Source: a virus | DNA: 64,000 nt | Virus record (IMG/VR): IMGVR_UViG_3300045988_119069 | Direction: 5' to 3' (one strand) | In this document: one piece after another, positions 2,198 to 47,494 of the stretch | Numbering within the stretch: position 1 is the stretch's first letter | Layout of the letters: each line of letters starts with the position of its first letter | Translations under genes and position numbers: made by a program | The notes under the pieces: generated by a model | The model's database searches: none | What the model saw: the letters and a program-made list of their open reading frames with translations, nothing else | What the model was told of the DNA's origin: nothing

Positions 2198-3049
2198 TTA
2201 TAATGTCAAGTCAATACCAAATTCTCTTTCCAAGAACTCCTTCCAGTCCGGTTTCCCGAACAGCGAAACGTTAGCCTTCTGCCAATCCTTTTCGCGAGGG
2301 AAGAACACATCACGCGCAAACCATTCGTACACGTTGTCGTAGCGTTGACGGACTTTTGCGTCGGGATGATTGTTCCAAAAGCGTTGCCCGGCACGTAGGT
2401 AGGCTCGTGCCATACGCGGATAATCCTTGAAGTAGAGGATGCGCTTGCGTTCTGTGGCGAGAGGGCAGCACATACAGCCGAGGCGTTTCGACACGTCGAT
2501 TTGCCCCCGACTGGTATAATAGACTGGAGCGAGTGTCAGATGCCGATCTTCGACGAAAGCCAACACATCATTGTCCGTCCAATCGAGAATAGGATAAATG
2601 GCTTCCACATGATTGGCTTCCGTCTTACGACCGTAAAAACGGCATTCCGTAGGTTCGTTCTATCGCTCGTTGCGTTTCGAGCTCTCCGACTTCCTTACGC
2701 CCATGATGCACTTATCCATAACCTTATACTCCTTCAACTTCTCGCAACAGAATCTCGAGAAACGGTTAGGAAATCCCTTTTTCGCTACAATCTGAAAGAA
2801 CGTTTCTTTTGGTCGGAGTATTTCGGCACCCATACGCTCCACATGGGCAATCGTCCCTGGAGGGTCAATCGTAGTGTTGCGGTAGATGGCACGGAAGCGG
2901 ATTCCTGCCTCCTTAGCCAGTTGCAGAATCACGTCCGAGTCTTTGCCACCCGAATACGCCACCTCTATCTCACCGTCGTACCCATGCTGTATGCCTTGAA
3001 GCAGACGGATGGCACGGTCAATTTTCTTTTGTAAATCCTCTGTTACCAT
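2198..3049 (-). CDS. PAPS reductase / PP-loop ATPase family protein interrupted by one in-frame TAG (2660-2662)
   Basis: The N-terminal ORF has the PP-loop YSGGKDS and FCCEKLK. The C-terminal ORF has IYPILDWTDNDVLAFV. Both are in the same frame, separated only by TAG: ...SKRNER*NEPTECRFYGRKTEANHVEAIYPILDW. Confidence 0.7.
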
Positions 3050-3122
3050 ATCGTTGCTATATTGTTTTTGTTTATGAAGTTTATGTTATGCCTATTACTT
3101 CGCTAAGGTTATTCCTGTCACC

Positions 3123-4142
3123 TTATATTCCGTACTCCTTCAGATACCCCTCACACTTGAATCCCTTTCTTGGCATGAAGTCCTTAAAGTCGGTGGTGCA
3201 GAATATCATTCGCTTGTTGCACCATCGGGCCATATCCTTTTGCCATTCGGGGATGACGTGATTTGGATTTGTAGGGTTGCGGTATGGTTGTGCGTAGGCA
3301 TACACGGCTCTGCCTTCATGGTTTTTGCGGAAGCGTTGCAGTCGCTCCCACCAGTAGTGTAGACGGTGGTAACATTCTCGGAAGTTGTTCTTTCCGCCTA
3401 TCATGGTATAGAGAAAGTATTCGCCACGGAATCCTGCATCATTGATTAGCTTCATGGCTCGTTCACATTCCGCTATCTGTGCCGTGGTGTCGCAACCGAA
3501 GCGGATGCGAGAGTCTATCCATTTCACTTTGCCCAACAGTTCTGCATATTCGGTAGTGACAAGCCGTGCGTCCATCGCCTGATTGAAGTCGATATGATAC
3601 CCTCCCCGAATGATTTTTTCCAACTGTTCTTTTGCATAGTCGCCAGCTGCAAGGATGTTGTTATCCATTAACACAACGTGCGTTCTGCCCCCGATGGCTA
3701 TCTCTTCTATATCCATGTACGGACGGATGAACCCTTCCTTCTTTGGCACCACACACCAAAAACACTTGTTGGGACAGCCCTCGGTCAGTTTGCCGTAAGC
3801 ATGGTTCTTTGGCACCCATGGGAACAACTCGTATAGCGGTTGCAGTCGGTCTATCTCGTCGGGAAGACGCTTATAGATGTCGTAGCCAGTGCCACCCTTC
3901 TCCAGTCGGTCGTAGGAGAACTGCCGAAAGTCGATGTCGGGCGAAAAGTTGAAAACCTTGCTGGCATACAGTATATCGTAATGATGCCTGTCGAAAAGGT
4001 CGGTAGGTTGTGCCCATTCCACTTCATCGCCCCTTGTCGTGTACCAACGGGCAATCTTGCCGAGAGCCACGTTAGGGTATATCGTAGCTCCCCGTTTCTT
4101 TTTGCCGTGTCGTCCGTCCACGTCTATGAGTCCTATTTTCAT
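3123..4142 (-). CDS. radical SAM domain protein
   Basis: CX3CX2C cluster CPNKCFWC after an N-terminal MKIGLIDVDG Rossmann-like segment. 339 aa. Confidence 0.75.
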   Translation of the reverse strand: MKIGLIDVDGRHGKKKRGATIYPNVALGKIARWYTTRGDEVEWAQPTDLFDRHHYDILYASKVFNFSPDIDFRQFSYDRLEKGGTGYDIYKRLPDEIDRLQPLYELFPWVPKNHAYGKLTEGCPNKCFWCVVPKKEGFIRPYMDIEEIAIGGRTHVVLMDNNILAAGDYAKEQLEKIIRGGYHIDFNQAMDARLVTTEYAELLGKVKWIDSRIRFGCDTTAQIAECERAMKLINDAGFRGEYFLYTMIGGKNNFRECYHRLHYWWERLQRFRKNHEGRAVYAYAQPYRNPTNPNHVIPEWQKDMARWCNKRMIFCTTDFKDFMPRKGFKCEGYLKEYGI

Positions 4143-19494: not shown

Positions 19495-19567
19495 AGCGGA
19501 GTGGAGCAGCTGGCAGCTCACTTGGCTCATAACCAAGAGGTCGAGGGTTCGAGTCCCTTCTCCGCAA
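19495..19567 (+). tRNA. tRNA with anticodon CAU (Met, fMet or Ile2 type)
   Basis: Hand-folded cloverleaf: acceptor AGCGGAG/CTCCGCA, D arm GAGC-AGCTGGCA-GCTC, anticodon arm CTTGG-CTCATAA-CCAAG, variable AGGTC, T arm GAGGG-TTCGAGT-CCCTT. There is a 1:72 A.A mismatch and no encoded CCA. Confidence 0.8.
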
Positions 19568-30715: not shown

Positions 30716-31279
30716 ATGAAAGCAAAAAACAAGGTACTGCTTGACAGATACGACCTTTACTTTAGAGGTGTTTGGAAGAAACCCTACAACTATCCATCGC
30801 TGTTAGATATAGTACAGCGTCGCATAGGATGGAGGGCTGACGTACTTCGTTGTTGTGACAACTGGGAAGAGATTGTTTCTATTGACCGCAAAGCGCTTTC
30901 CAACTTTTGCGACCCGAAGGTGTTCCATTTCCCGAAAAAGCGGCGTGTGCCTCCTGAAGTTTTTGACCCGAGGTATTCGATGCAAAATGAATATCACATC
31001 GTAAGGAAGAAAAACAATCGGTATAAGATTGTTCTGAATAAGCCCAAAAGACGTTCCGTTGGAAGAACCTTGGTGGTAGATACAAAGAGAGGTTATATCC
31101 GTGAGATTGGCGACAAGGTGTGGTATCATCCAGATTGGATGGATTTCGGTTGTGAGACCTGTGCTGACTTCGGAACTTGTCGGTCTGGTTATCACGACAA
31201 GAGTTTTTGTATGGTGGCTGCAAAGTGTGGAATCGGTCGCTGTAACACATGGCTGGAAGTAAGAGAAAACAATGACTGA
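30716..31279 (+). CDS. hypothetical Cys-rich protein
   Basis: 187 aa. Its stop overlaps the start of the next mini-ORF (ATGACTGA). Confidence 0.5.
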   Translation: MKAKNKVLLDRYDLYFRGVWKKPYNYPSLLDIVQRRIGWRADVLRCCDNWEEIVSIDRKALSNFCDPKVFHFPKKRRVPPEVFDPRYSMQNEYHIVRKKNNRYKIVLNKPKRRSVGRTLVVDTKRGYIREIGDKVWYHPDWMDFGCETCADFGTCRSGYHDKSFCMVAAKCGIGRCNTWLEVRENND

Positions 31280-31526
31280 CCCTCACTACAAGCGCGGCAC
31301 CATCCGCAAGGATGGCAAGCTGTATGGCCGCTATCCCGACGGCTCGCTCTACCGCATCTACTCCACCGACCGACCGTTTCTTCAGTTGGTGGACCGAGAG
31401 GGCGAGACGTTCCTTCGCATACGCCAAGCCACCGAGCAGGGCTACACCGACTGTCCCTGCCCTGGAGCCGCCGACCTAAGTTATCCGTCCTCGGCTCTAA
31501 GGCGCAGTCGCACAGTCGGGGGGTAA
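31272..31526 (+). CDS. TRD-like fragment 1 of a C5-methyltransferase, truncated at a G6 tract (alternative end 31584)
   Basis: ...IRQATEQGYTDCPCPGAADLSYPSSALRRSRTVGG* resembles the ATKKGY...SKTRRGRVG TRD type. Removing one G from 31518-31523 extends it to ...GGKLVNALTAASSGICVFVEL*. Confidence 0.55.
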   Translation: MTDPHYKRGTIRKDGKLYGRYPDGSLYRIYSTDRPFLQLVDREGETFLRIRQATEQGYTDCPCPGAADLSYPSSALRRSRTVGG

Positions 31527-31599
31527 GCTCGTAAACGCGCTGACCGCTGCAAGTAGCGGAATCTGCGTTTTTGTTGAATTATAAAAGGAGAAATAAATT

Positions 31600-31971
31600 A
31601 TGATTATAACGAATGATTGGCGGCTCTGGCTCGCATCAATGTTGTTTACGTTTGTCGTAACAATTTTGTTCATGGCTTACATTTGGTGGACAGAGCGAAA
31701 ACCAAAGAAAGAGATAAAAAATGATAGAGAAATAGACTATCAGAATTGTGATGCGTATTTCTTGTGTGTGTTTACCAAAAGTGGTGGATGCGATTTGCAC
31801 AGAGCCTCGGAGATCAAGCAGGTTGTTTCATCTGTGAATAAAGATTATATCAACGTAATAACGGTCGATGGTGATGTAACGCATTATGAAAATGTCATAT
31901 CGTATGAGTTCAAACACGTTTTAGATTTGTCCTTGTATAATTTGAATACAGTAAAAAGAGTAGCTAAATAG
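31600..31971 (+). CDS. hypothetical membrane protein
   Basis: N-terminal TM segment WRLWLASMLFTFVVTILFMAYIWW. 123 aa. Ends in TAG. Confidence 0.5.
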   Translation: MIITNDWRLWLASMLFTFVVTILFMAYIWWTERKPKKEIKNDREIDYQNCDAYFLCVFTKSGGCDLHRASEIKQVVSSVNKDYINVITVDGDVTHYENVISYEFKHVLDLSLYNLNTVKRVAK

Positions 31972-32027: not shown

Positions 32028-32372
32028 GTGCTGTTAATGTCGGATAAAGCATCTACCTTAATGTCAAACTCAACCAAGGACGCTTGCATCTGCGTCGAAT
32101 CTGACGAACAAAGTGTAAGTTTTAAGGACGAACCGTCGGAAGGTGTAACGATGGATATTACAGCCGAGTATCGCAACATCGTTCAGTTGTGGCACCCTGC
32201 CACAGAAAAGCCTTATTGCATAGGTCAACTTCTCTGTTGGTGTCACGACGGAAAATTCTTCGTACACAACCATTACAGCCATGACGATGAAAATTGGCAT
32301 TTATTCATCAGCACTAACAACATAAAGCGTTATTGCTATATTTCCAATTTGGAACCCGAATGGTTCATTTGA
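32028..32372 (+). CDS. hypothetical protein
   Basis: 114-aa ORF directly followed by mini-ORF A. Confidence 0.45.
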   Translation: MLLMSDKASTLMSNSTKDACICVESDEQSVSFKDEPSEGVTMDITAEYRNIVQLWHPATEKPYCIGQLLCWCHDGKFFVHNHYSHDDENWHLFISTNNIKRYCYISNLEPEWFI

Positions 32373-32373
32373 T

Positions 32374-32505
32374 ATGACTGACATTAAGATTTCCGTGCAT
32401 CCCGTTAGCCATCGGCTCGAATGGCGAGGATGGGGTGATTTCTCGCCCTCCCTTCGAGCCACCGACTACAAATGCCCACACTGTATAATGATTGAATATG
32501 ACTAA
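32374..32505 (+). CDS. TRD-like mini-ORF A (43 aa)
   Basis: MTDIKISVHPVSHRLEWRGWGDFSPSLRATDYKCPHCIMIEYD*. Below the track cutoff. SLRATDYK..IMIEYD resembles the distal TRD segment of C5-MTases. Confidence 0.55.
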   Translation: MTDIKISVHPVSHRLEWRGWGDFSPSLRATDYKCPHCIMIEYD

Positions 32506-32629
32506 TCTTGACTTCTACCAATATCCTCGTGGCAATAACGATGGAGGTAAATTAGACACTGACGTTTGCCCGACCGTGACAATCAACTCGTGGCAGCAAA
32601 ATGTATTTCTGATTGAAGAATATGAATAA
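32498..32629 (+). CDS. TRD-like mini-ORF B (43 aa)
   Basis: MTNLDFYQYPRGNNDGGKLDTDVCPTVTINSWQQNVFLIEEYE*. Its start lies inside the junction TATGACTAA of ORF A. Confidence 0.55.
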   Translation: MTNLDFYQYPRGNNDGGKLDTDVCPTVTINSWQQNVFLIEEYE

Positions 32630-32774
32630 CATCACAATAGACTACCACGCTCATGCTATATCGAGCATTTATTGGAATGTTTCGCCTGACTATAAAAGAC
32701 CTCCGTTAGTAGGTATTAATAGATGTGTCAAGACCGATACTCATGCTCCTGGAATTTTGATAGAATACAAATAA
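32622..32774 (+). CDS. TRD-like mini-ORF C (50 aa)
   Basis: MNNITIDYHAHAISSIYWNVSPDYKRPPLVGINRCVKTDTHAPGILIEYK*. Its start lies inside the junction TATGAATAA of ORF B. Confidence 0.5.
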   Translation: MNNITIDYHAHAISSIYWNVSPDYKRPPLVGINRCVKTDTHAPGILIEYK

Positions 32775-32784
32775 CAGCAACAAT

Positions 32785-34110
32785 ATGATCACAAAACTAA
32801 ATTTCACCGACCGCACCATCAAGAGCTATGCCATCCGCAAGCTCACACCCAAGGAGTGTTTTCGCTTGATGGGCGTTCGCGACAACGTAATCGGCACGAT
32901 GCAGAGCAGCAATGCTCAAGCAGCCGAACGTCTGCCCGACTGGAAGGGCAAGGGTAAACCCGAAGACATGGCTATATCTGCCTCACAGCAGTACAAGCAA
33001 GCTGGAAACAGTATTTGTATAGATGTGTTAGCATATCTATATCAAAATCTTTTCTACCCCGCTCCACCCAAGCCTCGCCCCGGCAAGCAGCTCACTCTCT
33101 TCGACGCCCCCGAAGATACCCTGCCCGCCCTGCCGCCCACCGCCGACAAGAACGAAGAGAAGATATTCCTCACCACGTTCTCCGGCTACGACTCGCAGCT
33201 CATGGCAGCCGACGTGCTACGCGAGTGGCATCCCGACTTTCGATGGACATGCGTAGGATGGAGCGACATCGACAAATACGCCTGTCAGATGCACAACCTC
33301 GTCTTCCCTCAGTTTGCCGACTGCGCCCTGGGCGACATCACCAAGATTGACTGGCACGAGGTGGAAAGCTCGCTCGAAGGCCGCGAAGTGGACCTCTTCA
33401 CCTATTCCTCGCCTTGCCAGGACATCAGTCAGGCGGGCAAGCAAATGGGCTTGCAGGAGGGCAGCGACACCCGAAGCGCACTGCTTTGGCGTGTGGCGGA
33501 TGCCGTGGAGGTGCTTCGCCCGAAGTATCTCTTGCAGGAGAACGTGGCGGCACTGGTAAGCCAGAAGTTCTTGCCAGACTTTCAGAAGTGGCTCGACAAA
33601 CTCTCGTCGCTCGGCTATGTGAGCCGTTGGACGCGACTCAACGCCAAGAACTACGGTGTGCCCCAAAACCGCGACCGTGTGTTCTGCCTCTCCATGCGCC
33701 GAGACGTAGCCTTCGACTATCAGTTTCCCGAACCCTTCGAGCTGCTTACCCGATTGGAAGACGTGCTCGAAGAGGAAGTGTCCGACCGCTATTTCCTCAA
33801 GGACGATGCCGTGAGCAAGTTCCTCAAGGCAAACGACTCTGACAATGCCTTATTCCTTCAATTCGACCTGCCACCGACACATGAGGCGGCAATGTTCCTC
33901 AAGACCGTGCTTCAGATATTCATGGAGCGTCACGACGGATGGGACAAGGGCATTGAGTGGAACGAGAAAGAACTGAGCTATCATCGCCCAGCCATCGCCC
34001 ATCTCTACGAAAAGTTCAAGGAGAACCCAAAGAAACTGGACGTGGAATATTGGCGCGGTTTTTATGGAATGTTTAAGGAGAATATGGAGAGGAAGAAGGA
34101 TGAAAAATAA
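32785..34110 (+). CDS. circularly permuted DNA (cytosine-5)-methyltransferase catalytic core lacking an obvious TRD
   Basis: Motif order: IX RKLTPKECFRLMG, X QYKQAGNSICIDV, Pro-rich linker, I TTFSGYDSQ, IV YSSPCQDISQAG, VI LLQENV, VIII VPQNRDRVF. Confidence 0.85.
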   Translation: MITKLNFTDRTIKSYAIRKLTPKECFRLMGVRDNVIGTMQSSNAQAAERLPDWKGKGKPEDMAISASQQYKQAGNSICIDVLAYLYQNLFYPAPPKPRPGKQLTLFDAPEDTLPALPPTADKNEEKIFLTTFSGYDSQLMAADVLREWHPDFRWTCVGWSDIDKYACQMHNLVFPQFADCALGDITKIDWHEVESSLEGREVDLFTYSSPCQDISQAGKQMGLQEGSDTRSALLWRVADAVEVLRPKYLLQENVAALVSQKFLPDFQKWLDKLSSLGYVSRWTRLNAKNYGVPQNRDRVFCLSMRRDVAFDYQFPEPFELLTRLEDVLEEEVSDRYFLKDDAVSKFLKANDSDNALFLQFDLPPTHEAAMFLKTVLQIFMERHDGWDKGIEWNEKELSYHRPAIAHLYEKFKENPKKLDVEYWRGFYGMFKENMERKKDEK

Positions 34111-34246
34111 ACCGTTTCATGCTATTCAAAATGGGGGGGGTACGATTGCACCTGCAATCACCTCCCACTATTTCAAAGCCGGTGTGCGAGATTTCTTGTT
34201 TGCGCTCGCCATACCGCATTGCTGTTTAATAGTAGAATATGATTGA
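34100..34246 (+). CDS. TRD-like mini-ORF D (48 aa) containing a G8 tract
   Basis: MKNKPFHAIQNGGGTIAPAITSHYFKAGVRDFLFALAIPHCCLIVEYD*. The start overlaps the core stop region (GATGAAAAATAA). G8 at 34133-34140. Confidence 0.55.
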   Translation: MKNKPFHAIQNGGGTIAPAITSHYFKAGVRDFLFALAIPHCCLIVEYD

Positions 34247-34376
34247 AAAGATTGGCAACATTTATTACGACAAGTGGAAGTCCGGTTTTGATGGCAACAT
34301 CTGCGGCACTAAAGGAATATACCCCACCCTAACCTTGTCAACACAAACGGGGGAAGTACTGATTGAATATGCTTAG
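34239..34376 (+). CDS. TRD-like mini-ORF E (45 aa)
   Basis: MIEKIGNIYYDKWKSGFDGNICGTKGIYPTLTLSTQTGEVLIEYA*. Has the PTLT signature. Ends in TAG. Confidence 0.55.
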   Translation: MIEKIGNIYYDKWKSGFDGNICGTKGIYPTLTLSTQTGEVLIEYA

Positions 34377-34521
34377 CAACCCTCGTCCCCTCGTCCTCGG
34401 CTCCTACAGCCCCTCGCAGAACGGCATCATCGTGTCACCACACGGCATAGCCCTGTGCATAGTCGGGGGAGGTAAGGGTCACGACGTGGATAAACCGAAA
34501 ATATTGATAGAGTATGATTAA
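34369..34521 (+). CDS. TRD-like mini-ORF F (50 aa)
   Basis: MLSNPRPLVLGSYSPSQNGIIVSPHGIALCIVGGGKGHDVDKPKILIEYD*. Confidence 0.5.
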   Translation: MLSNPRPLVLGSYSPSQNGIIVSPHGIALCIVGGGKGHDVDKPKILIEYD

Positions 34522-34533
34522 AGACAATCTCCT

Positions 34534-34707
34534 ATGCTACACTTTCGCATAGCAGCCTTCCGAGGCCGTGACCCCGACAATCCGTCCGACCGCAAGCATC
34601 CCTCCAACGGACGCTTCTGTCAGCGAATGGAGATAAACTGGGGGAGTACAACCAACACTCTCACCTCAGTAGGCAAAGACAACATGGTATATCTGGAATA
34701 TGAATAG
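34534..34707 (+). CDS. TRD-like mini-ORF G (57 aa)
   Basis: MLHFRIAAFRGRDPDNPSDRKHPSNGRFCQRMEINWGSTTNTLTSVGKDNMVYLEYE*. Matches the RGR..NP.D....Q.LE....NTLT...KDN TRD pattern. Ends in TAG. Confidence 0.6.
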   Translation: MLHFRIAAFRGRDPDNPSDRKHPSNGRFCQRMEINWGSTTNTLTSVGKDNMVYLEYE

Positions 34708-34849
34708 ACAAATCTCTTTCGTGCAACGCACATCAAAGCTCTGCCCACGTCGGGGGTACTCCACGGCATTGTCCGCACGCTACGACGGATGGGCAGGACT
34801 CTACGACGAGCACGGACAGCACACCATTGTATTGATAGAATATGAATAG
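34700..34849 (+). CDS. TRD-like mini-ORF H (49 aa)
   Basis: MNRQISFVQRTSKLCPRRGYSTALSARYDGWAGLYDEHGQHTIVLIEYE*. Ends in TAG. Confidence 0.5.
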   Translation: MNRQISFVQRTSKLCPRRGYSTALSARYDGWAGLYDEHGQHTIVLIEYE

Positions 34850-34982
34850 GCATACACTAAATTGTCCGTCCGGCATCTGCTGCGTCCTGACATCCCATTA
34901 CGCAAGAGAAGGATGGGCGAATATGGCAAGCAATACAACATCACAATGCAAAGCACCTGCAGTATTGATAGAATATGAATAA
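34842..34982 (+). CDS. TRD-like mini-ORF I (46 aa)
   Basis: MNRHTLNCPSGICCVLTSHYAREGWANMASNTTSQCKAPAVLIEYE*. Confidence 0.5.
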   Translation: MNRHTLNCPSGICCVLTSHYAREGWANMASNTTSQCKAPAVLIEYE

Positions 34983-35002
34983 CAATTTAAAATAGAGACA
35001 TT

Positions 35003-35812
35003 ATGAGTCAAAAAGAAACAAGAAGCATCCCTAAAACGGGAGCAAAAACTTTCGAGAATGAGAAACTATCAGCCTTTCTCCACAGTCTGCCTAAAGGAGC
35101 TATGCTTTATTCGCCTTTGTTAGGCTACATGACGGTGTATGACATCAACGAATCGGGCGTTGTGATGGCCCTTCCTAATCCTGTCGAGAATGAACCATAC
35201 GATTGGCCTTTCCTTTACAACGGACGTATAGCGCGCTACGACAAAGGAGAGTGTATGCTGTTTCTCTCGCATCTTTACCGGAGTTGGAATGTGCTCAAAT
35301 TCCAGCTGGGTGACATCGTGGCAATGGACATCAAGTATAAAGATGGCAACATTCTGACCTACATTGTGATTTTCAGCGAAGTGGAATCTACTGATTATCC
35401 CAAGATAAGGACATACGCCTGCTTATGCAAAAACAGCGACGTGCTTACTTCTTACGCTCTGCTTGATCTTCGCGGTACACGCGAAGAAGAAGAAAGCATC
35501 GAACTGAGATACGCTACGCCTACGGAAGAAAAACTTCTCAATAATGCCGTGGAGAAAATCGGGAAAAGATGGGACAAGGTAAAGCAGCGTCTTGTGTCAT
35601 TAGATTCTGAAGCTCACACTCCCGAGCAGCTGCGCGAGGATTTCAACGCCTTACAGGAAGAATACTATCGCTTGTGTGAACATTGCAAGAAGTTAGAGAA
35701 TGAGCGTAACGATTTCCAAAAGAAAGCAGAGTTAGAGTCAGGTAGAATACAGGAAATATTATACAAGGCTATCGAACAAGTAGGGCAGAGTAAACTACAG
35801 ACCGATGACTGA
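35003..35812 (+). CDS. hypothetical protein with a C-terminal coiled coil
   Basis: 269 aa. Its stop overlaps the next mini-ORF start (ATGACTGA). Confidence 0.55.
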   Translation: MSQKETRSIPKTGAKTFENEKLSAFLHSLPKGAMLYSPLLGYMTVYDINESGVVMALPNPVENEPYDWPFLYNGRIARYDKGECMLFLSHLYRSWNVLKFQLGDIVAMDIKYKDGNILTYIVIFSEVESTDYPKIRTYACLCKNSDVLTSYALLDLRGTREEEESIELRYATPTEEKLLNNAVEKIGKRWDKVKQRLVSLDSEAHTPEQLREDFNALQEEYYRLCEHCKKLENERNDFQKKAELESGRIQEILYKAIEQVGQSKLQTDD

Positions 35813-35984
35813 CAAGTATTACATCGGATGGGTACGCAGCGGCAAGGACGGCAAGGACCTCGTAAAGAGCCGACCGCGCAAGCAGATAGCCAATACCGTG
35901 ACAACCTCACCGCCAGGCTGCTTTGCCGACCCTTGCGACGGGCTTGGCAACACCACACCGCATATAGTATATAAATTTGAATAA
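35805..35984 (+). CDS. TRD-like mini-ORF J (59 aa)
   Basis: MTDKYYIGWVRSGKDGKDLVKSRPRKQIANTVTTSPPGCFADPCDGLGNTTPHIVYKFE*. Confidence 0.5.
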   Translation: MTDKYYIGWVRSGKDGKDLVKSRPRKQIANTVTTSPPGCFADPCDGLGNTTPHIVYKFE

Positions 35985-36175: not shown

Positions 36176-36745
36176 ATGAAACATCAGGAATTTAGGAATC
36201 GTATTGCCTATGCAAGGCGTTATGGAGAATTGGTAGCCGAAAATGTGGCGATGGGACAAAGAATACATCGTCTTGTCAGAGACTATAACAGGGTAGTAAA
36301 AAAACTTCGCAAGCTGGAAGACAAGCATGAGGATGTAGTAATGGAGCTGGCAAAGGAGAAGGCTGCTCACGATGAATTGGCTAAGGGTTACACCAACGTC
36401 TGCAACGCTAACATAGCGCAAGGGCGTGAGACTGACAATCTCAGAAACGTGCTTGCCAATTTGCGAAGTGAGAACGCAGACCTAAAGCAAGAGCGCAGCG
36501 ACCTTATCGACTTGCTTGAGGAAAAAGGGTTCACTCTCGTCAAGAACACCGAATGCCCTCACGATATGATAGAGACGGGGGGCCCGTTCTGCAAAGAAAA
36601 TCCCGAAACAGTAAGAGTGGATAGCTGCGCATGTTGGAATTGTGAATATTTCTGCCTCCGACTGAAGGACAGAGGCAAGATAGTTTGCAAGGAAGGACAA
36701 AAACGGAAGCAGCAAGACAATAATGCCGATGTCGCTATTGAATAA
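36176..36745 (+). CDS. coiled-coil plus Cys-rich protein (paralogue 1)
   Basis: 189 aa. N-terminal coiled coil and a C-terminal CPHD..C..CACWNCEYFC cluster. Preceded by AATATGTAATAAAAATTATAGAGACA. Confidence 0.55.
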   Translation: MKHQEFRNRIAYARRYGELVAENVAMGQRIHRLVRDYNRVVKKLRKLEDKHEDVVMELAKEKAAHDELAKGYTNVCNANIAQGRETDNLRNVLANLRSENADLKQERSDLIDLLEEKGFTLVKNTECPHDMIETGGPFCKENPETVRVDSCACWNCEYFCLRLKDRGKIVCKEGQKRKQQDNNADVAIE

Positions 36746-38438: not shown

Positions 38439-39614
38439 ATGAGTGACTTAAAGATTTTTGCAAAGACCATCGAACCTGAAGTCCAGGAGCAAGTAAGAAA
38501 GATGGCAGAGAGCGAGGCTTACCGCGACTGTAAGATTCGTATTATGCCCGATTGTCATGCCGGAAAGGGATGCACCGTAGGCACCGTGATTGAAACCCGT
38601 GGCAAGGTGGTGCCCAACACAGTAGGTGTGGATATAGGCTGTGGTATGTTGGTATTCAAGTTCGCTGAGAAGGATATTAACCTTTCGCTTCTCGACCGAA
38701 TCATCAATGAGTCGGTGCCGAGCGGATTTGACGTTCACGAAAAGTCCAAGCTAAAAGTTATGAGTCCGCTTACGTCACATCTTTTGCTCGATTTGCACGA
38801 AAGGACACAAGGTTGCTTCGACCCCGACTATATCGGACGCTCGCTTGGCACCCTCGGTGGCGGCAATCACTTCATCGAGCTTGACGAGGACGAGCAGGGC
38901 TGTAAGTATCTTGTGATACATTCGGGCAGTCGCAATCTCGGAGTTAAGGTGTGCAATTTTTTCCAACACTTAGCCAAGAAGAATGTGAATCGTAGTGAGG
39001 AGCGCAAGCGCATCATCGAAGACTTGAAGAAGTACGGCTTAGAGAGGGAGATTAACAATGCGTTGCGTCGTTTGGGCACCGTGCCTCCCGATCTCGCCTA
39101 TCTTGAGGGAGAAGACCTCGATGCCTATAATTTCGCAGCGAACGTCTGTCAGTGTTTTGCCGACGACAACAGATGGGATATAGCAATGACTATAATCCAT
39201 GGGCTTCAATTATCGTTCGTGGATTTCTTTACCACCAGGCATAACTATTTCGACATACACTCAGGCATCATCCGAAAAGGAGCCGTGTGTGCCGAAAATG
39301 GCGAACAGCTTATCATCCCACTTAATATGCGCGACGGTTCGTTGATCTGTCGCGGCAAGGGCAACGACGACTGGCTTCAGTCAGCTCCGCATGGTGCTGG
39401 CAGACTGATGTCGCGCTCGGCGGCAAAGAAGCAGCTCAGCATGGAGGAATACCGCCAGCAAATGCACGACATCTACTCCACATCGGTATGCGAGTCCACC
39501 ATAGACGAAGCACCAATGGCGTATAAGTCGGCAGAGGAGATAGAAGAACTGATAGGCGACACTGTGGATGTGGTGAAGCGCATCAAGCCGATATATAACT
39601 TTAAGGCAAAGTAA
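38439..39614 (+). CDS. rtcB: RtcB-type RNA 3'-phosphate ligase
   Basis: MPDCHAGKG, VGVDIGCGM, GGGNHFIELD, IHSGSRNLG and SAPHGAGR motifs. Confidence 0.9.
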   Translation: MSDLKIFAKTIEPEVQEQVRKMAESEAYRDCKIRIMPDCHAGKGCTVGTVIETRGKVVPNTVGVDIGCGMLVFKFAEKDINLSLLDRIINESVPSGFDVHEKSKLKVMSPLTSHLLLDLHERTQGCFDPDYIGRSLGTLGGGNHFIELDEDEQGCKYLVIHSGSRNLGVKVCNFFQHLAKKNVNRSEERKRIIEDLKKYGLEREINNALRRLGTVPPDLAYLEGEDLDAYNFAANVCQCFADDNRWDIAMTIIHGLQLSFVDFFTTRHNYFDIHSGIIRKGAVCAENGEQLIIPLNMRDGSLICRGKGNDDWLQSAPHGAGRLMSRSAAKKQLSMEEYRQQMHDIYSTSVCESTIDEAPMAYKSAEEIEELIGDTVDVVKRIKPIYNFKAK

Positions 39615-46846: not shown

Positions 46847-47494
46847 ATGACCTCATTCGATCAACTCAAACAAATCTGCACCCATGCCTGCCACGACCGC
46901 CACGCTTGTGCCGAAGGCTATCGTGCCATGCTCGCCACCGAAAATATCAGTCAGCTCATGGCTGTGTGGCGAGCCAACTGGGAAGACATCGTTGAGAGCA
47001 AATACGCCGATATCATCAACGAACAGCTTCATGCTCTCTACCTCGACTCCACCCTAAGAGCGAAAATGAACGCCGCCGGCATCTACGTTAACGAATGTCC
47101 GAAGACAGCACCCGAGTTTGTACTTGTCATTGTTACCGACCATGACCGCATCGTTGATATATACGATTATGCCAAGTGCTATGTCCTCGGCAGGGCATAC
47201 GTTCGTGCATGGGACCACGCCCAGGTATATAGCGAGAAAAACGATGAATGTCTTGTTCAGCTCTACGACCATTCTTACGGTCATGTCAGCAAGGGAGGAG
47301 TAGAAGCCACTGGCTACTCCCGTTTATGGACTTCTACTAACGCCCGTCTTTTCGGTCGTGTGACATGCGAAGCCCACGGTGGCGAGATCCGTGTTTGCGG
47401 CTATCTGAAGATTGAAGCCTACGGCGACACCAAGGTATTCAGCAAAACCGACCGCAACATCACACTGTACGGCAACGCCCACATAATAGTATAA
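46847..47494 (+). CDS. hypothetical structural protein
   Basis: 215-aa ORF. Confidence 0.55.
   Translation: MTSFDQLKQICTHACHDRHACAEGYRAMLATENISQLMAVWRANWEDIVESKYADIINEQLHALYLDSTLRAKMNAAGIYVNECPKTAPEFVLVIVTDHDRIVDIYDYAKCYVLGRAYVRAWDHAQVYSEKNDECLVQLYDHSYGHVSKGGVEATGYSRLWTSTNARLFGRVTCEAHGGEIRVCGYLKIEAYGDTKVFSKTDRNITLYGNAHIIV

Follow-up and report, generated by a model that had tools for sequence, protein, structure and literature searches.

Can one DNA methyltransferase take its sequence specificity from many small peptides, each encoded by a gene of its own? The question is raised by a locus in the IMG/VR virus record IMGVR_UViG_3300045988_119069, of which 64 kb were analysed (here called the window; coordinates refer to the whole of it). 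On the + strand, between positions 32374 and 34982, nine miniature open reading frames (mini-ORFs) of 43-57 amino acids (aa) flank a single 441-aa core ORF, which encodes a cytosine-5 (C5) DNA methyltransferase. An original prediction, made without database searches, had placed three of the mini-ORFs (A-C) upstream and six (D-I) downstream of this core, and all nine are present on the + strand where it put them. The explanation that we favour, at somewhat better than even confidence, is that the mini-ORFs are separately translated, trans-acting target recognition domain (TRD) peptides which complete a TRD-less core, giving multispecific anti-restriction methylation. Swapping peptides of 45-60 residues would probably aim one enzyme at many DNA sequences.

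The core (32785-34110, + strand) is a TRD-less, circularly permuted C5-cytosine methyltransferase that matches PF00145 (E = 3e-48, 165 bits) and finds its best PDB matches in M.MpeI and M.HhaI. Catalytic motifs I, IV, VI, VIII, IX and X are recognizable as FSGYDS, SSPCQDIS, QENV, PQNRDRVF, IRKLTPKECFRLMG and AGNSI, respectively, in a chain laid out as motifs IX-X, a Pro-rich linker, motifs I-VIII and a variable helical C-terminal module. The permutation is evident from alignment, in which core residues 15-49 correspond to M.MpeI 333-367 (motif IX) and core residues 193-350 to M.MpeI 117-277; the same motif order occurs in 20 of the 150 top representative clusters. No TRD lies between motifs VIII and IX in the core chain: about 55 residues (M.MpeI 277 to 333) have no counterpart and, past motif VIII, about 30 residues of the usual proximal segment are followed by the helical module (approximately 60-90 aa). 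That the core would be permuted and begin at motif IX had been foreseen, and the alignment agrees, setting its start just before this motif. Judged by these sequences, the mini-ORFs would supply the part of the TRD that the core chain lacks. The core itself is no rarity: the phages that encode it are a common gut family of ~100 kb, and thousands of proteins from gut metagenomes, encoded on contigs of 90-110 kb, are identical or nearly identical to it; some of these records are labelled Prevotella sp. or Caudoviricetes.

The mini-ORFs, all on the + strand and with lengths counted from their junction ATGs, form a tightly linked chain. Upstream of the core lie A (32374-32505, 43 aa), of the TRD type '..SPSLRATDYK..IMIEYD'; B (32498-32629, 43 aa, or 45 aa from a TTG at 32492; '..CPTVTINSW..LIEEYE'), whose ATG is inside the tail of A; and C (32622-32774, 50 aa), with the tail ILIEYK. 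Downstream lie D (34100-34246, 48 aa; '..APAITSHYFKAG..LIVEYD'), whose ATG overlaps the last core codons, E (34239-34376, 45 aa; '..YPTLTLST..LIEYA'), F (34369-34521, 50 aa; '..GIALCIVGGGKG..ILIEYD'), G (34534-34707, 57 aa; '..RGRDPDNPSDR..NTLTSVGKDN..YLEYE'), H (34700-34849, 49 aa; '..GYSTALSARYDGW..LIEYE') and I (34842-34982, 46 aa; '..CCVLTSHYAREG..LIEYE'). All nine finish in [LIVMY][LIV]E(E)Y, one further residue and a stop, the tails from A to I reading IMIEYD, LIEEYE, LIEYK, IVEYD, LIEYA, LIEYD, YLEYE, LIEYE and LIEYE. A tail of the form (L/I)(I/V)EY(E/D/K/A) had been claimed for nearly all of them, and the wider pattern just given holds for all nine. Applied to the entire window, a regular expression for the tail returned the array region and one chance match of 30 aa at 47248. 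The mini-ORFs had also been described as invisible in the supplied track, which fits a public assembly with an identical core in which only pieces of 84 aa and 57 aa were called. Across thousands of contigs from gut phages, gene callers overlook most of the cassettes, as we term the mini-ORFs and their homologues, and the cassette families would aid annotation.

Several lines of comparison connect the cassettes with TRDs. A tblastn search of the concatenated cassettes against GenBank phages gave matches only in annotated C5-methyltransferase genes. Mini-ORF G shares 55-60% identity with annotated phage C5-methyltransferases (E = 1e-5), the best match of A reaches 63% identity over 33 aa, C matches protein P0192, and F matches P0205 and P0224. 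Six cassettes (B, C, D, E, G and K', the last a further cassette described below) line up with successive tandem TRDs in the beta protein of Dulem virus 40, D weakly, with the first of these TRDs; B and C each resemble one of them individually. Among 150 representative relatives of the core, 15 of 20 cassette families find a match, and 76 of the 77 matches on proteins with the normal motif order fall between motifs VIII and IX. In the nearest normal-order relatives of the core this interval spans 47-494 aa, room for one to many TRDs, while permuted relatives can carry TRDs fused to their N-terminus (two in P0132, one each in P0159 and P0220; P0140 is also of this type). The tail shared by the cassettes corresponds, in fused relatives, to the strand leading into motif IX. 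Against the PDB, a profile of the F family found as its only match residues 237-257 of M.HhaI, which belong to the recognition loops, and this match is weak (E of about 1); a PDB sequence search with all cassettes concatenated returned nothing at E values up to 10. A Pfam scan of the nine mini-ORFs alone assigned no family, because they are too short. On this evidence most of the mini-ORFs are, as far as homology can tell, distal, base-contacting TRD segments. The original prediction had taken all nine as such, which holds for most of them by virtue of relatives within full-length enzymes; H alone among the nine has no relative inside a full-length methyltransferase. Its further idea, a split version of the multispecific phage methyltransferases, is in keeping with the closest relatives, which are multi-TRD enzymes of phage type.

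A structure model bears on how the two components might fit together. AlphaFold was applied to a covalent, de-permuted chimera (core[117-441]+F+core[1-110]) with an alignment of 61 natural relatives that had little family-specific depth for the helical module. The chimera was predicted with a mean predicted local distance difference test (pLDDT) score of 82.7 and a predicted template modelling score of 0.81; pLDDT exceeds 90 in the catalytic domain and is 95-97 in motif IX. The F region is beta-rich (pLDDT 72-81), and three long helices follow motif VIII (pLDDT 53-69). The tail strand, residues 368-379 (PKILIEYD...), adjoins the N-terminal strand of the core, residues 382-393 (...TIKSYAIR), just ahead of motif IX. 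In a Foldseek search the best PDB match of the chimera was M.HhaI (E = 6e-24, target-normalised template modelling score 0.80-0.82). A core plus one cassette would thus make up a complete enzyme fold in the model, with only the helical module left over, and the predicted arrangement is consistent with docking of the tail by strand pairing. Prediction of G plus core, run with no alignment, reached a pLDDT of only 33.

The helical module (core residues ~372-432, window ~33900-34080) is itself unusual. Cores are otherwise 70-94% identical among relatives, and the flanks of the module (..HEAAMFLKT and ..FKENMERKKD) are conserved, but the module falls into at least ten mutually divergent types (below 55% identity). 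No obvious link was seen between module type and cassette content. The module may be a platform for the peptides. Protein P0126 (329 aa) consists of motifs I-VIII only, followed by the same C-terminal helical module and ending in ...ENMERKKDEN, and two permuted proteins, P0147 (623 aa) and P0156 (503 aa), carry an acidic or helical insertion of 150-270 aa between motifs IX and X.

We propose, then, that the TRDs of a multispecific phage cytosine-5 methyltransferase may have been split off into separate genes. Each cassette of 43-60 aa would be the distal, base-contacting part of a TRD, ending in an 'LIEY' beta-strand. Cassettes and core would probably share one transcript, on which every cassette would start at its own ATG, within an AT-rich junction overlapping the previous stop, by termination-reinitiation, by Shine-Dalgarno-independent initiation, or by both. 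Each core molecule would bind one peptide non-covalently, the peptide tail pairing with the strand just before motif IX and so completing the small domain. The resulting set of enzymes, differing in specificity, would methylate phage DNA in advance and protect it from many host restriction systems. With every TRD in an ORF of its own, cassettes could be gained, lost or frameshifted without harm to the core or to one another. If free TRD peptides of about 50 residues prove real, the distal TRD would be shown to be autonomous and exchangeable; a minimal TRD size and a docking element (the LIEY strand) would be defined and specificity would become testable cassette by cassette. Phages would have a new route past many restriction systems in the form of a fault-tolerant, modular and possibly phase-variable array, and some 25 cassette families with one core would constitute a ready-made library of 5-methylcytosine specificities for methylome engineering.

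Relatives of the locus show how the cassettes are deployed. The comparison set comprised 80 IMG/VR contigs (L001-L080) with cores 69-94% identical to that of the window, each taken with flanks of 4 kb; with the window they make up the 81 loci referred to below. The same kind of mini-ORFs is found in these related loci, directly around the core or past one or a few inserted genes. The outliers are L056 and L059; at one of them a cassette lies about 3.7 kb downstream, where the fetched flank ends, and at the other the flank contains none. Tail-bearing ORFs cluster round the core and occur essentially nowhere else in the flanks. The 81 loci hold 503 tail-bearing segments in 24 clusters, and further families have differing tails (...CYTFT, ...VFVEL, ...VAVEL, ...IVYEFE). 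Altogether there are approximately 25 cassette families with at least three members, and 2-13 cassettes per locus; F belongs to the commonest family, present in about 62-65 of the 81 loci. Cassette order is largely colinear with varying presence and absence, running I-M-J-F-Q-X-G-T-E-P upstream and E-B-a-O-L-A-C-N-D-Y-B-K-H downstream (here in family labels, which differ from the mini-ORF letters). At least three families, labelled E, P and A, are found upstream as well as downstream of the core. In the window, two more cassettes (31272-31526 and 35805-35984) lie outside the span originally predicted, and the array also includes two short remnants.

A repertoire of this kind could also be a silent reservoir, in which only the cassette adjacent to the core (in the position of C or D), or one fused to it, is functional at any one time and recombination between the junction repeats of about 18 bp moves or deletes cassettes. 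Conservation of the junction at the DNA level would be expected of such a store, as would cassettes that come and go on a conserved order and families able to occupy both sides of the core, and an internal deletion has left a remnant at 34514-34552. Every cassette, however, has its own in-frame ATG and stop, purifying selection reaches cassettes distant from the core, and a cassette-core fusion is present in none of the 80 loci. The core-adjacent cassette differs widely between loci. Since all the junction repeats are direct, recombination between them could only delete. PHROGs and Pfam scans of the neighbouring ORFs (187, 123, 114, 269, 56 and 189 aa) gave nothing above threshold and no recombinase. 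We regard a silent reservoir as unlikely.

The junctions bear on the choice between separate translation and some form of fusion. In seven junctions of the window the next ATG lies 5 nucleotides (nt) ahead of the stop (GAA TAT GAn TAA), within GAATATGAnTAA. There are two exceptions to this geometry: the core ATG lies 10 nt past the stop of C, whose junction (TAC AAA TAA) has no ATG, and the ATG of G lies 12-13 nt past the stop of F. This is the arrangement originally described, with each start inside the last codons of the previous ORF except for G and the core. The irregular spacing from F to G arises because an internally deleted copy of a 60-aa cassette sits there, namely the remnant at 34514-34552 (+ strand; 12 codons, MIKDNLLCYTFA). 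In 54-61 relatives the complete cassette ('MINRSVL..SNSITTVTKDNLLCYTFT') separates F from G. The remnant contains the ATG of G and may still hand ribosomes on to G.

Across the 503 junctions one geometry accounts for 352, the next frame being always +1, and the junction sequence (consensus TatTgaTaGAaTATGAnTAA) is strongly conserved. Such regularity might indicate that at every GAATATGAnTAA junction ribosomes hop, or change frame by +1, and so make one long multi-TRD enzyme, a product that fused tandem-TRD relatives show would work. What is conserved, however, is the ATG itself. It is found at -5 in 391 of the 454 junctions that do not precede the core, against 7 of the 49 that do, and so is lost where the next gene has its own start; in 35 of these 49 the Tyr is kept through the synonymous codon TAC, and the last residue then varies (K, I, M or N). 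Because the pre-core junctions drop the ATG and yet keep the Tyr, the peptide tail and the overlapping ATG must be constrained independently. Other geometries (-11, +2, +14, +15 and +21) also retain a start codon, and intercistronic gaps and same-frame arrangements occur as well. The distance from the last upstream cassette to the core ATG is 5-26 nt, in all three frames. Throughout the related loci each TRD is closed by a stop and the next begins in another frame with its own ATG. The retention of starts over several geometries and the three-frame gap before the core argue for separate translation and against frameshift fusion or decay. Neither a known slippery motif nor an RNA structure family was detected at the junctions, and inside the chain no RNA family or terminator-like site was found (the only Rfam hit in the window is one transfer RNA (tRNA), and a promoter and terminator scan performed at chance level). 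Recoding into a single polypeptide therefore seems to us decidedly improbable. Read-through by stop-codon reassignment was considered separately and rejected, as the frame changes from one ORF to the next and the junctions make use of all three stop codons.

As for how separate translation might be achieved, the GC content of about 50% in the bodies of the cassettes falls to 19-31% at the junctions, and of 235 junctions only 22 carry a Shine-Dalgarno-like motif. Initiation in Bacteroidota is poor in Shine-Dalgarno sequences. AT-rich junctions with few such motifs suit termination-reinitiation or Shine-Dalgarno-poor initiation.

Selection on the cassettes was assessed in 18 larger families by pairwise Nei-Gojobori estimates of the ratio of nonsynonymous to synonymous change (dN/dS). 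Fifteen are under purifying selection, with dN/dS of 0.11-0.47 and proportions of synonymous differences of 0.2-0.69 (about 0.4-0.7 for most, 0.2 for one). Families represented in the window give 0.32 (A), 0.33 (B), 0.32 (C), 0.29 (D), 0.25 (F) and 0.24 (H). Relatives of H form 72 database clusters, all of them stand-alone proteins of 44-75 aa, with the length of 49-50 aa kept down to 62% identity. The original prediction had called for a comparison of cassette gain and loss and of dN/dS among relatives, and the outcome is favourable to it: the cassettes vary on a conserved order and are mostly constrained. It had also named what would count against it, namely relatives with one intact fused multispecific gene while the pieces evolve neutrally. 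The first part is indeed found, in Dulem virus 40 beta, P0132 and many normal-order proteins; the second is not, given the dN/dS values in 15 of 18 families.

These data bear directly on the notion that the mini-ORFs are merely the non-functional, frameshifted remains of a once-fused multispecific gene. Decay of this sort would accord with the existence of fused relatives, with some frameshifted copies, with three small families in which dN/dS is about 1 or above or variation is absent, and with a few cores that contain nonsense codons. It does not accord with constraint maintained at high synonymous divergence, with the same break points, complete with start codons, across related loci whose cores share 69-94% identity, with the fixed length of the H family, or with a core that is very abundant and intact in about 76 of 81 loci, and we think it very improbable. 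Equally remote is a different role for the peptides, such as regulating the methyltransferase or acting on host enzymes as inhibitors or decoys, for although the peptide-core link is drawn indirectly and H and several other families have no detectable TRD relatives, most families show homology to the portion of a TRD that makes the recognition contacts, cassettes occur only beside a core lacking exactly that part, and their tail equals the strand into motif IX of fused relatives.

Interruptions of the core are a separate matter. No core is frameshifted; the four broken ones bear nonsense codons, with in-frame stops in L043 (~4706), L053 and L054 (~4304 and ~4604) and L073 (~4841). These stops replace Trp or Tyr codons (TGG to TAG or TGA, TAY to TAA) and do not fit any single known stop-codon reassignment. 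The four interrupted cores could be pseudogenes or suppressor-dependent genes.

Several considerations weigh against trans-acting TRD peptides. For five families, H among them, no relative could be detected within a full-length methyltransferase; the three small families in which dN/dS reaches about 1 or more, or which do not vary, look neutral or degraded; and a minority of cassette copies are frameshifted. Translation of the peptides, their non-covalent assembly with the core, multispecific activity and an anti-restriction role are each things that we infer. Termination-reinitiation over six to eight successive ORFs would lower the yield unless each junction also initiates alone. The only confident structure model is of a covalent chimera, and its alignment of normal enzymes biases it to the normal fold. 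We know of no experimental precedent for a three-way assembly that relies on a beta-rich peptide of 45 aa. Finally, methyltransferase fragments made by engineering often prove insoluble or show weak complementation (PMC5944983).

How does a system of TRD peptides compare with those already known? Our literature search found no description of a TRD-less core ringed by stand-alone TRD genes, although key papers of the 1990s on multispecific enzymes fell outside it. The multispecific phage C5-methyltransferases reportedly characterized by the Trautner laboratory include M.SPRI, M.Phi3TI, M.H2I and M.Rho11sI, as well as M.(phi)BssHII, with TRDs said to be at separated locations. The resemblance to such enzymes is considerable: one core served by several TRDs of approximately 40-60 aa that belong between motifs VIII and IX, a phage-borne gene with a presumed anti-restriction role, and several distinct TRD families per core (in the window, nine intact mini-ORFs and two further cassettes). 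Their TRDs, however, reside in one polypeptide, whereas each TRD here has its own start and stop, and the present core is permuted, with cassettes on both sides. How several TRDs are used by one catalytic domain has, to our knowledge, been an open question for multispecific methyltransferases since the 1980s, with no structure.

The most instructive relative is Dulem virus 40 (PP511379.1, from lemur gut; L081 in our numbering), in which two proteins are annotated merely as methylases. The alpha protein (XCD03592.1, 258 aa, 2176-2952) contains motifs I-VIII, and the beta protein (XCD03591.1, about 373-374 aa, 2995-4116) has around six tandem TRDs followed by motifs IX-X. Each TRD unit of beta ends in a hydrophobic-x-E strand, as the cassettes do, and its C-terminus (..QLSLFD) is homologous to the linker between motifs X and I of the window core. 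Unlike the cassettes, these TRDs form one chain with each other and with motifs IX-X, and the enzyme is not permuted; as in M.AquI, the split separates motif VIII from the TRDs. To judge from its layout, the pair looks like a fused counterpart of the window system, a split multispecific enzyme of the M.AquI type.

Natural two-subunit C5-methyltransferases, M.AquI and M.EcoHK31I, and complementation between fragments have been documented (PMC3404938). Non-covalent assembly from separate polypeptides is established for them and would apply here, and the break in M.AquI lies within the variable region; they consist nevertheless of two large subunits with one specificity and no array of alternative subunits, and their small subunit bears conserved motifs (IX-X or IX alone), not a bare TRD. 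Natural permuted C5-methyltransferases are likewise known (M.BssHII, M.Alw26I, M2.Eco31I, M.Esp3I and M2.BsaI; PMC5944983). Enzymes of the M.BssHII type resemble the window core in having motifs IX-X before I-VIII and an N-terminus in the variable region but differ from it in keeping their TRD in the same chain.

A functional parallel is to be found in bacterial Type I systems, where HsdS is a separate, exchangeable specificity subunit and where phase-variable hsdS and mod loci include switching at homopolymers. There, as is proposed here, a catalytic subunit takes its specificity from a separate polypeptide; repertoires vary between strains, and homopolymer tracts can act as switches, as G tracts may in the array. 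The fold and chemistry are unrelated (N6-adenine methylation, a coiled-coil protein of about 400 aa) and one HsdS is used at a time; variation of HsdS and mod in bacteria works through inversion or repeat tracts, in contrast to the phage array of co-expressed peptides proposed here.

Homopolymers are indeed a feature of the array. G runs in the window comprise G6 at 31518-31523 (in K'), G8 at 34133-34140 (in D) and G5 runs at 34349 (E), 34465 (F), 34640 (G) and 34752 (H). Broken cassette copies in relatives usually lose frame at a G run on the coding strand. In the H family, copies with G5 or G8 are intact and those with G6, G7 or G9 are broken, and in the D and F families the intact or broken state likewise tracks the length of the run modulo 3. 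Runs of at least five G number 195 in 70.8 kb of cassettes but 15 in 94.8 kb of cores, an approximately 17-fold higher density that is strand-specific. Between pairs of loci at least 97% identical, drawn from the 80, length differs in 27 of 51 array G runs; the figure for A runs is 10 of 162 and that for T runs 3 of 46 (6% for A or T). The source of these differences may be assembly error at G homopolymers, or it may be phase variation, with slippage at G tracts turning single specificities on and off. TRDs in separate genes would tolerate such switching; a fused enzyme would not. That the array consists of trans-acting specificity subunits of 45-60 residues which retarget one core and are each switched independently by G-tract slippage is a tentative proposal, which we hold to be doubtful as a whole. 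Were it correct, a phage population would carry a combinatorial, phase-variable methylation repertoire, and the cassettes would be the first peptide-sized exchangeable DNA-specificity subunit of any DNA methyltransferase, a template for peptide-programmable methylation. Elsewhere in the 64 kb, G or C runs of at least six occur only at 1355 (G8) and 36577 (G6), the latter inside a 189-aa ORF (36176-36745) just downstream of the array.

The two cassettes beyond the original span differ in condition. K' (31272-31526, + strand, 84 aa; family label J) belongs to the MTDPHYK family and ends early, directly after its G6 tract. One added G would restore the reading '...GGKLVNALTAASSGICVFVEL', with an end near 31583; with the frame downstream of the tract intact, K' would be an 'off' copy. 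Cassette J (35805-35984, + strand, 59 aa; family label H) reads '..RKQIANTVTT..TTPHIVYKFE', with the tail HIVYKFE, and matches P0175, P0254 and P0153; its family occurs in 27-40 loci with a dN/dS of 0.19. It is separated from I by a 269-aa ORF (35003-35812), whose end it overlaps. The second remnant (34975-34995, + strand; six codons, MNNNLK) begins at the junction ATG of I and marks the end of this run of cassettes.

Inserted among the cassettes are ORFs of 123 aa (31600-31971, with a predicted membrane helix) and 114 aa (32028-32372), as well as that of 269 aa, which has the same position in eight loci. They are coupled by their starts and stops to the adjoining cassettes; the 114-aa ORF stops 1 nt short of the ATG of A.

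The window is part of the genome of a tailed phage, encoding a tape-measure protein, a head protease and tail fibre proteins. An assignment to the crAss-like phages was dropped in view of the tape-measure protein, and GenBank phages yielded no relative of the locus at the DNA level. A tRNA gene lies at 19495-19567. Downstream of the array, at a distance of 3.5 kb, is a gene for an RtcB-type tRNA ligase (38439-39614; PHROG 1075, 2e-124); ligase and methyltransferase in combination suggest a counter-defence region.

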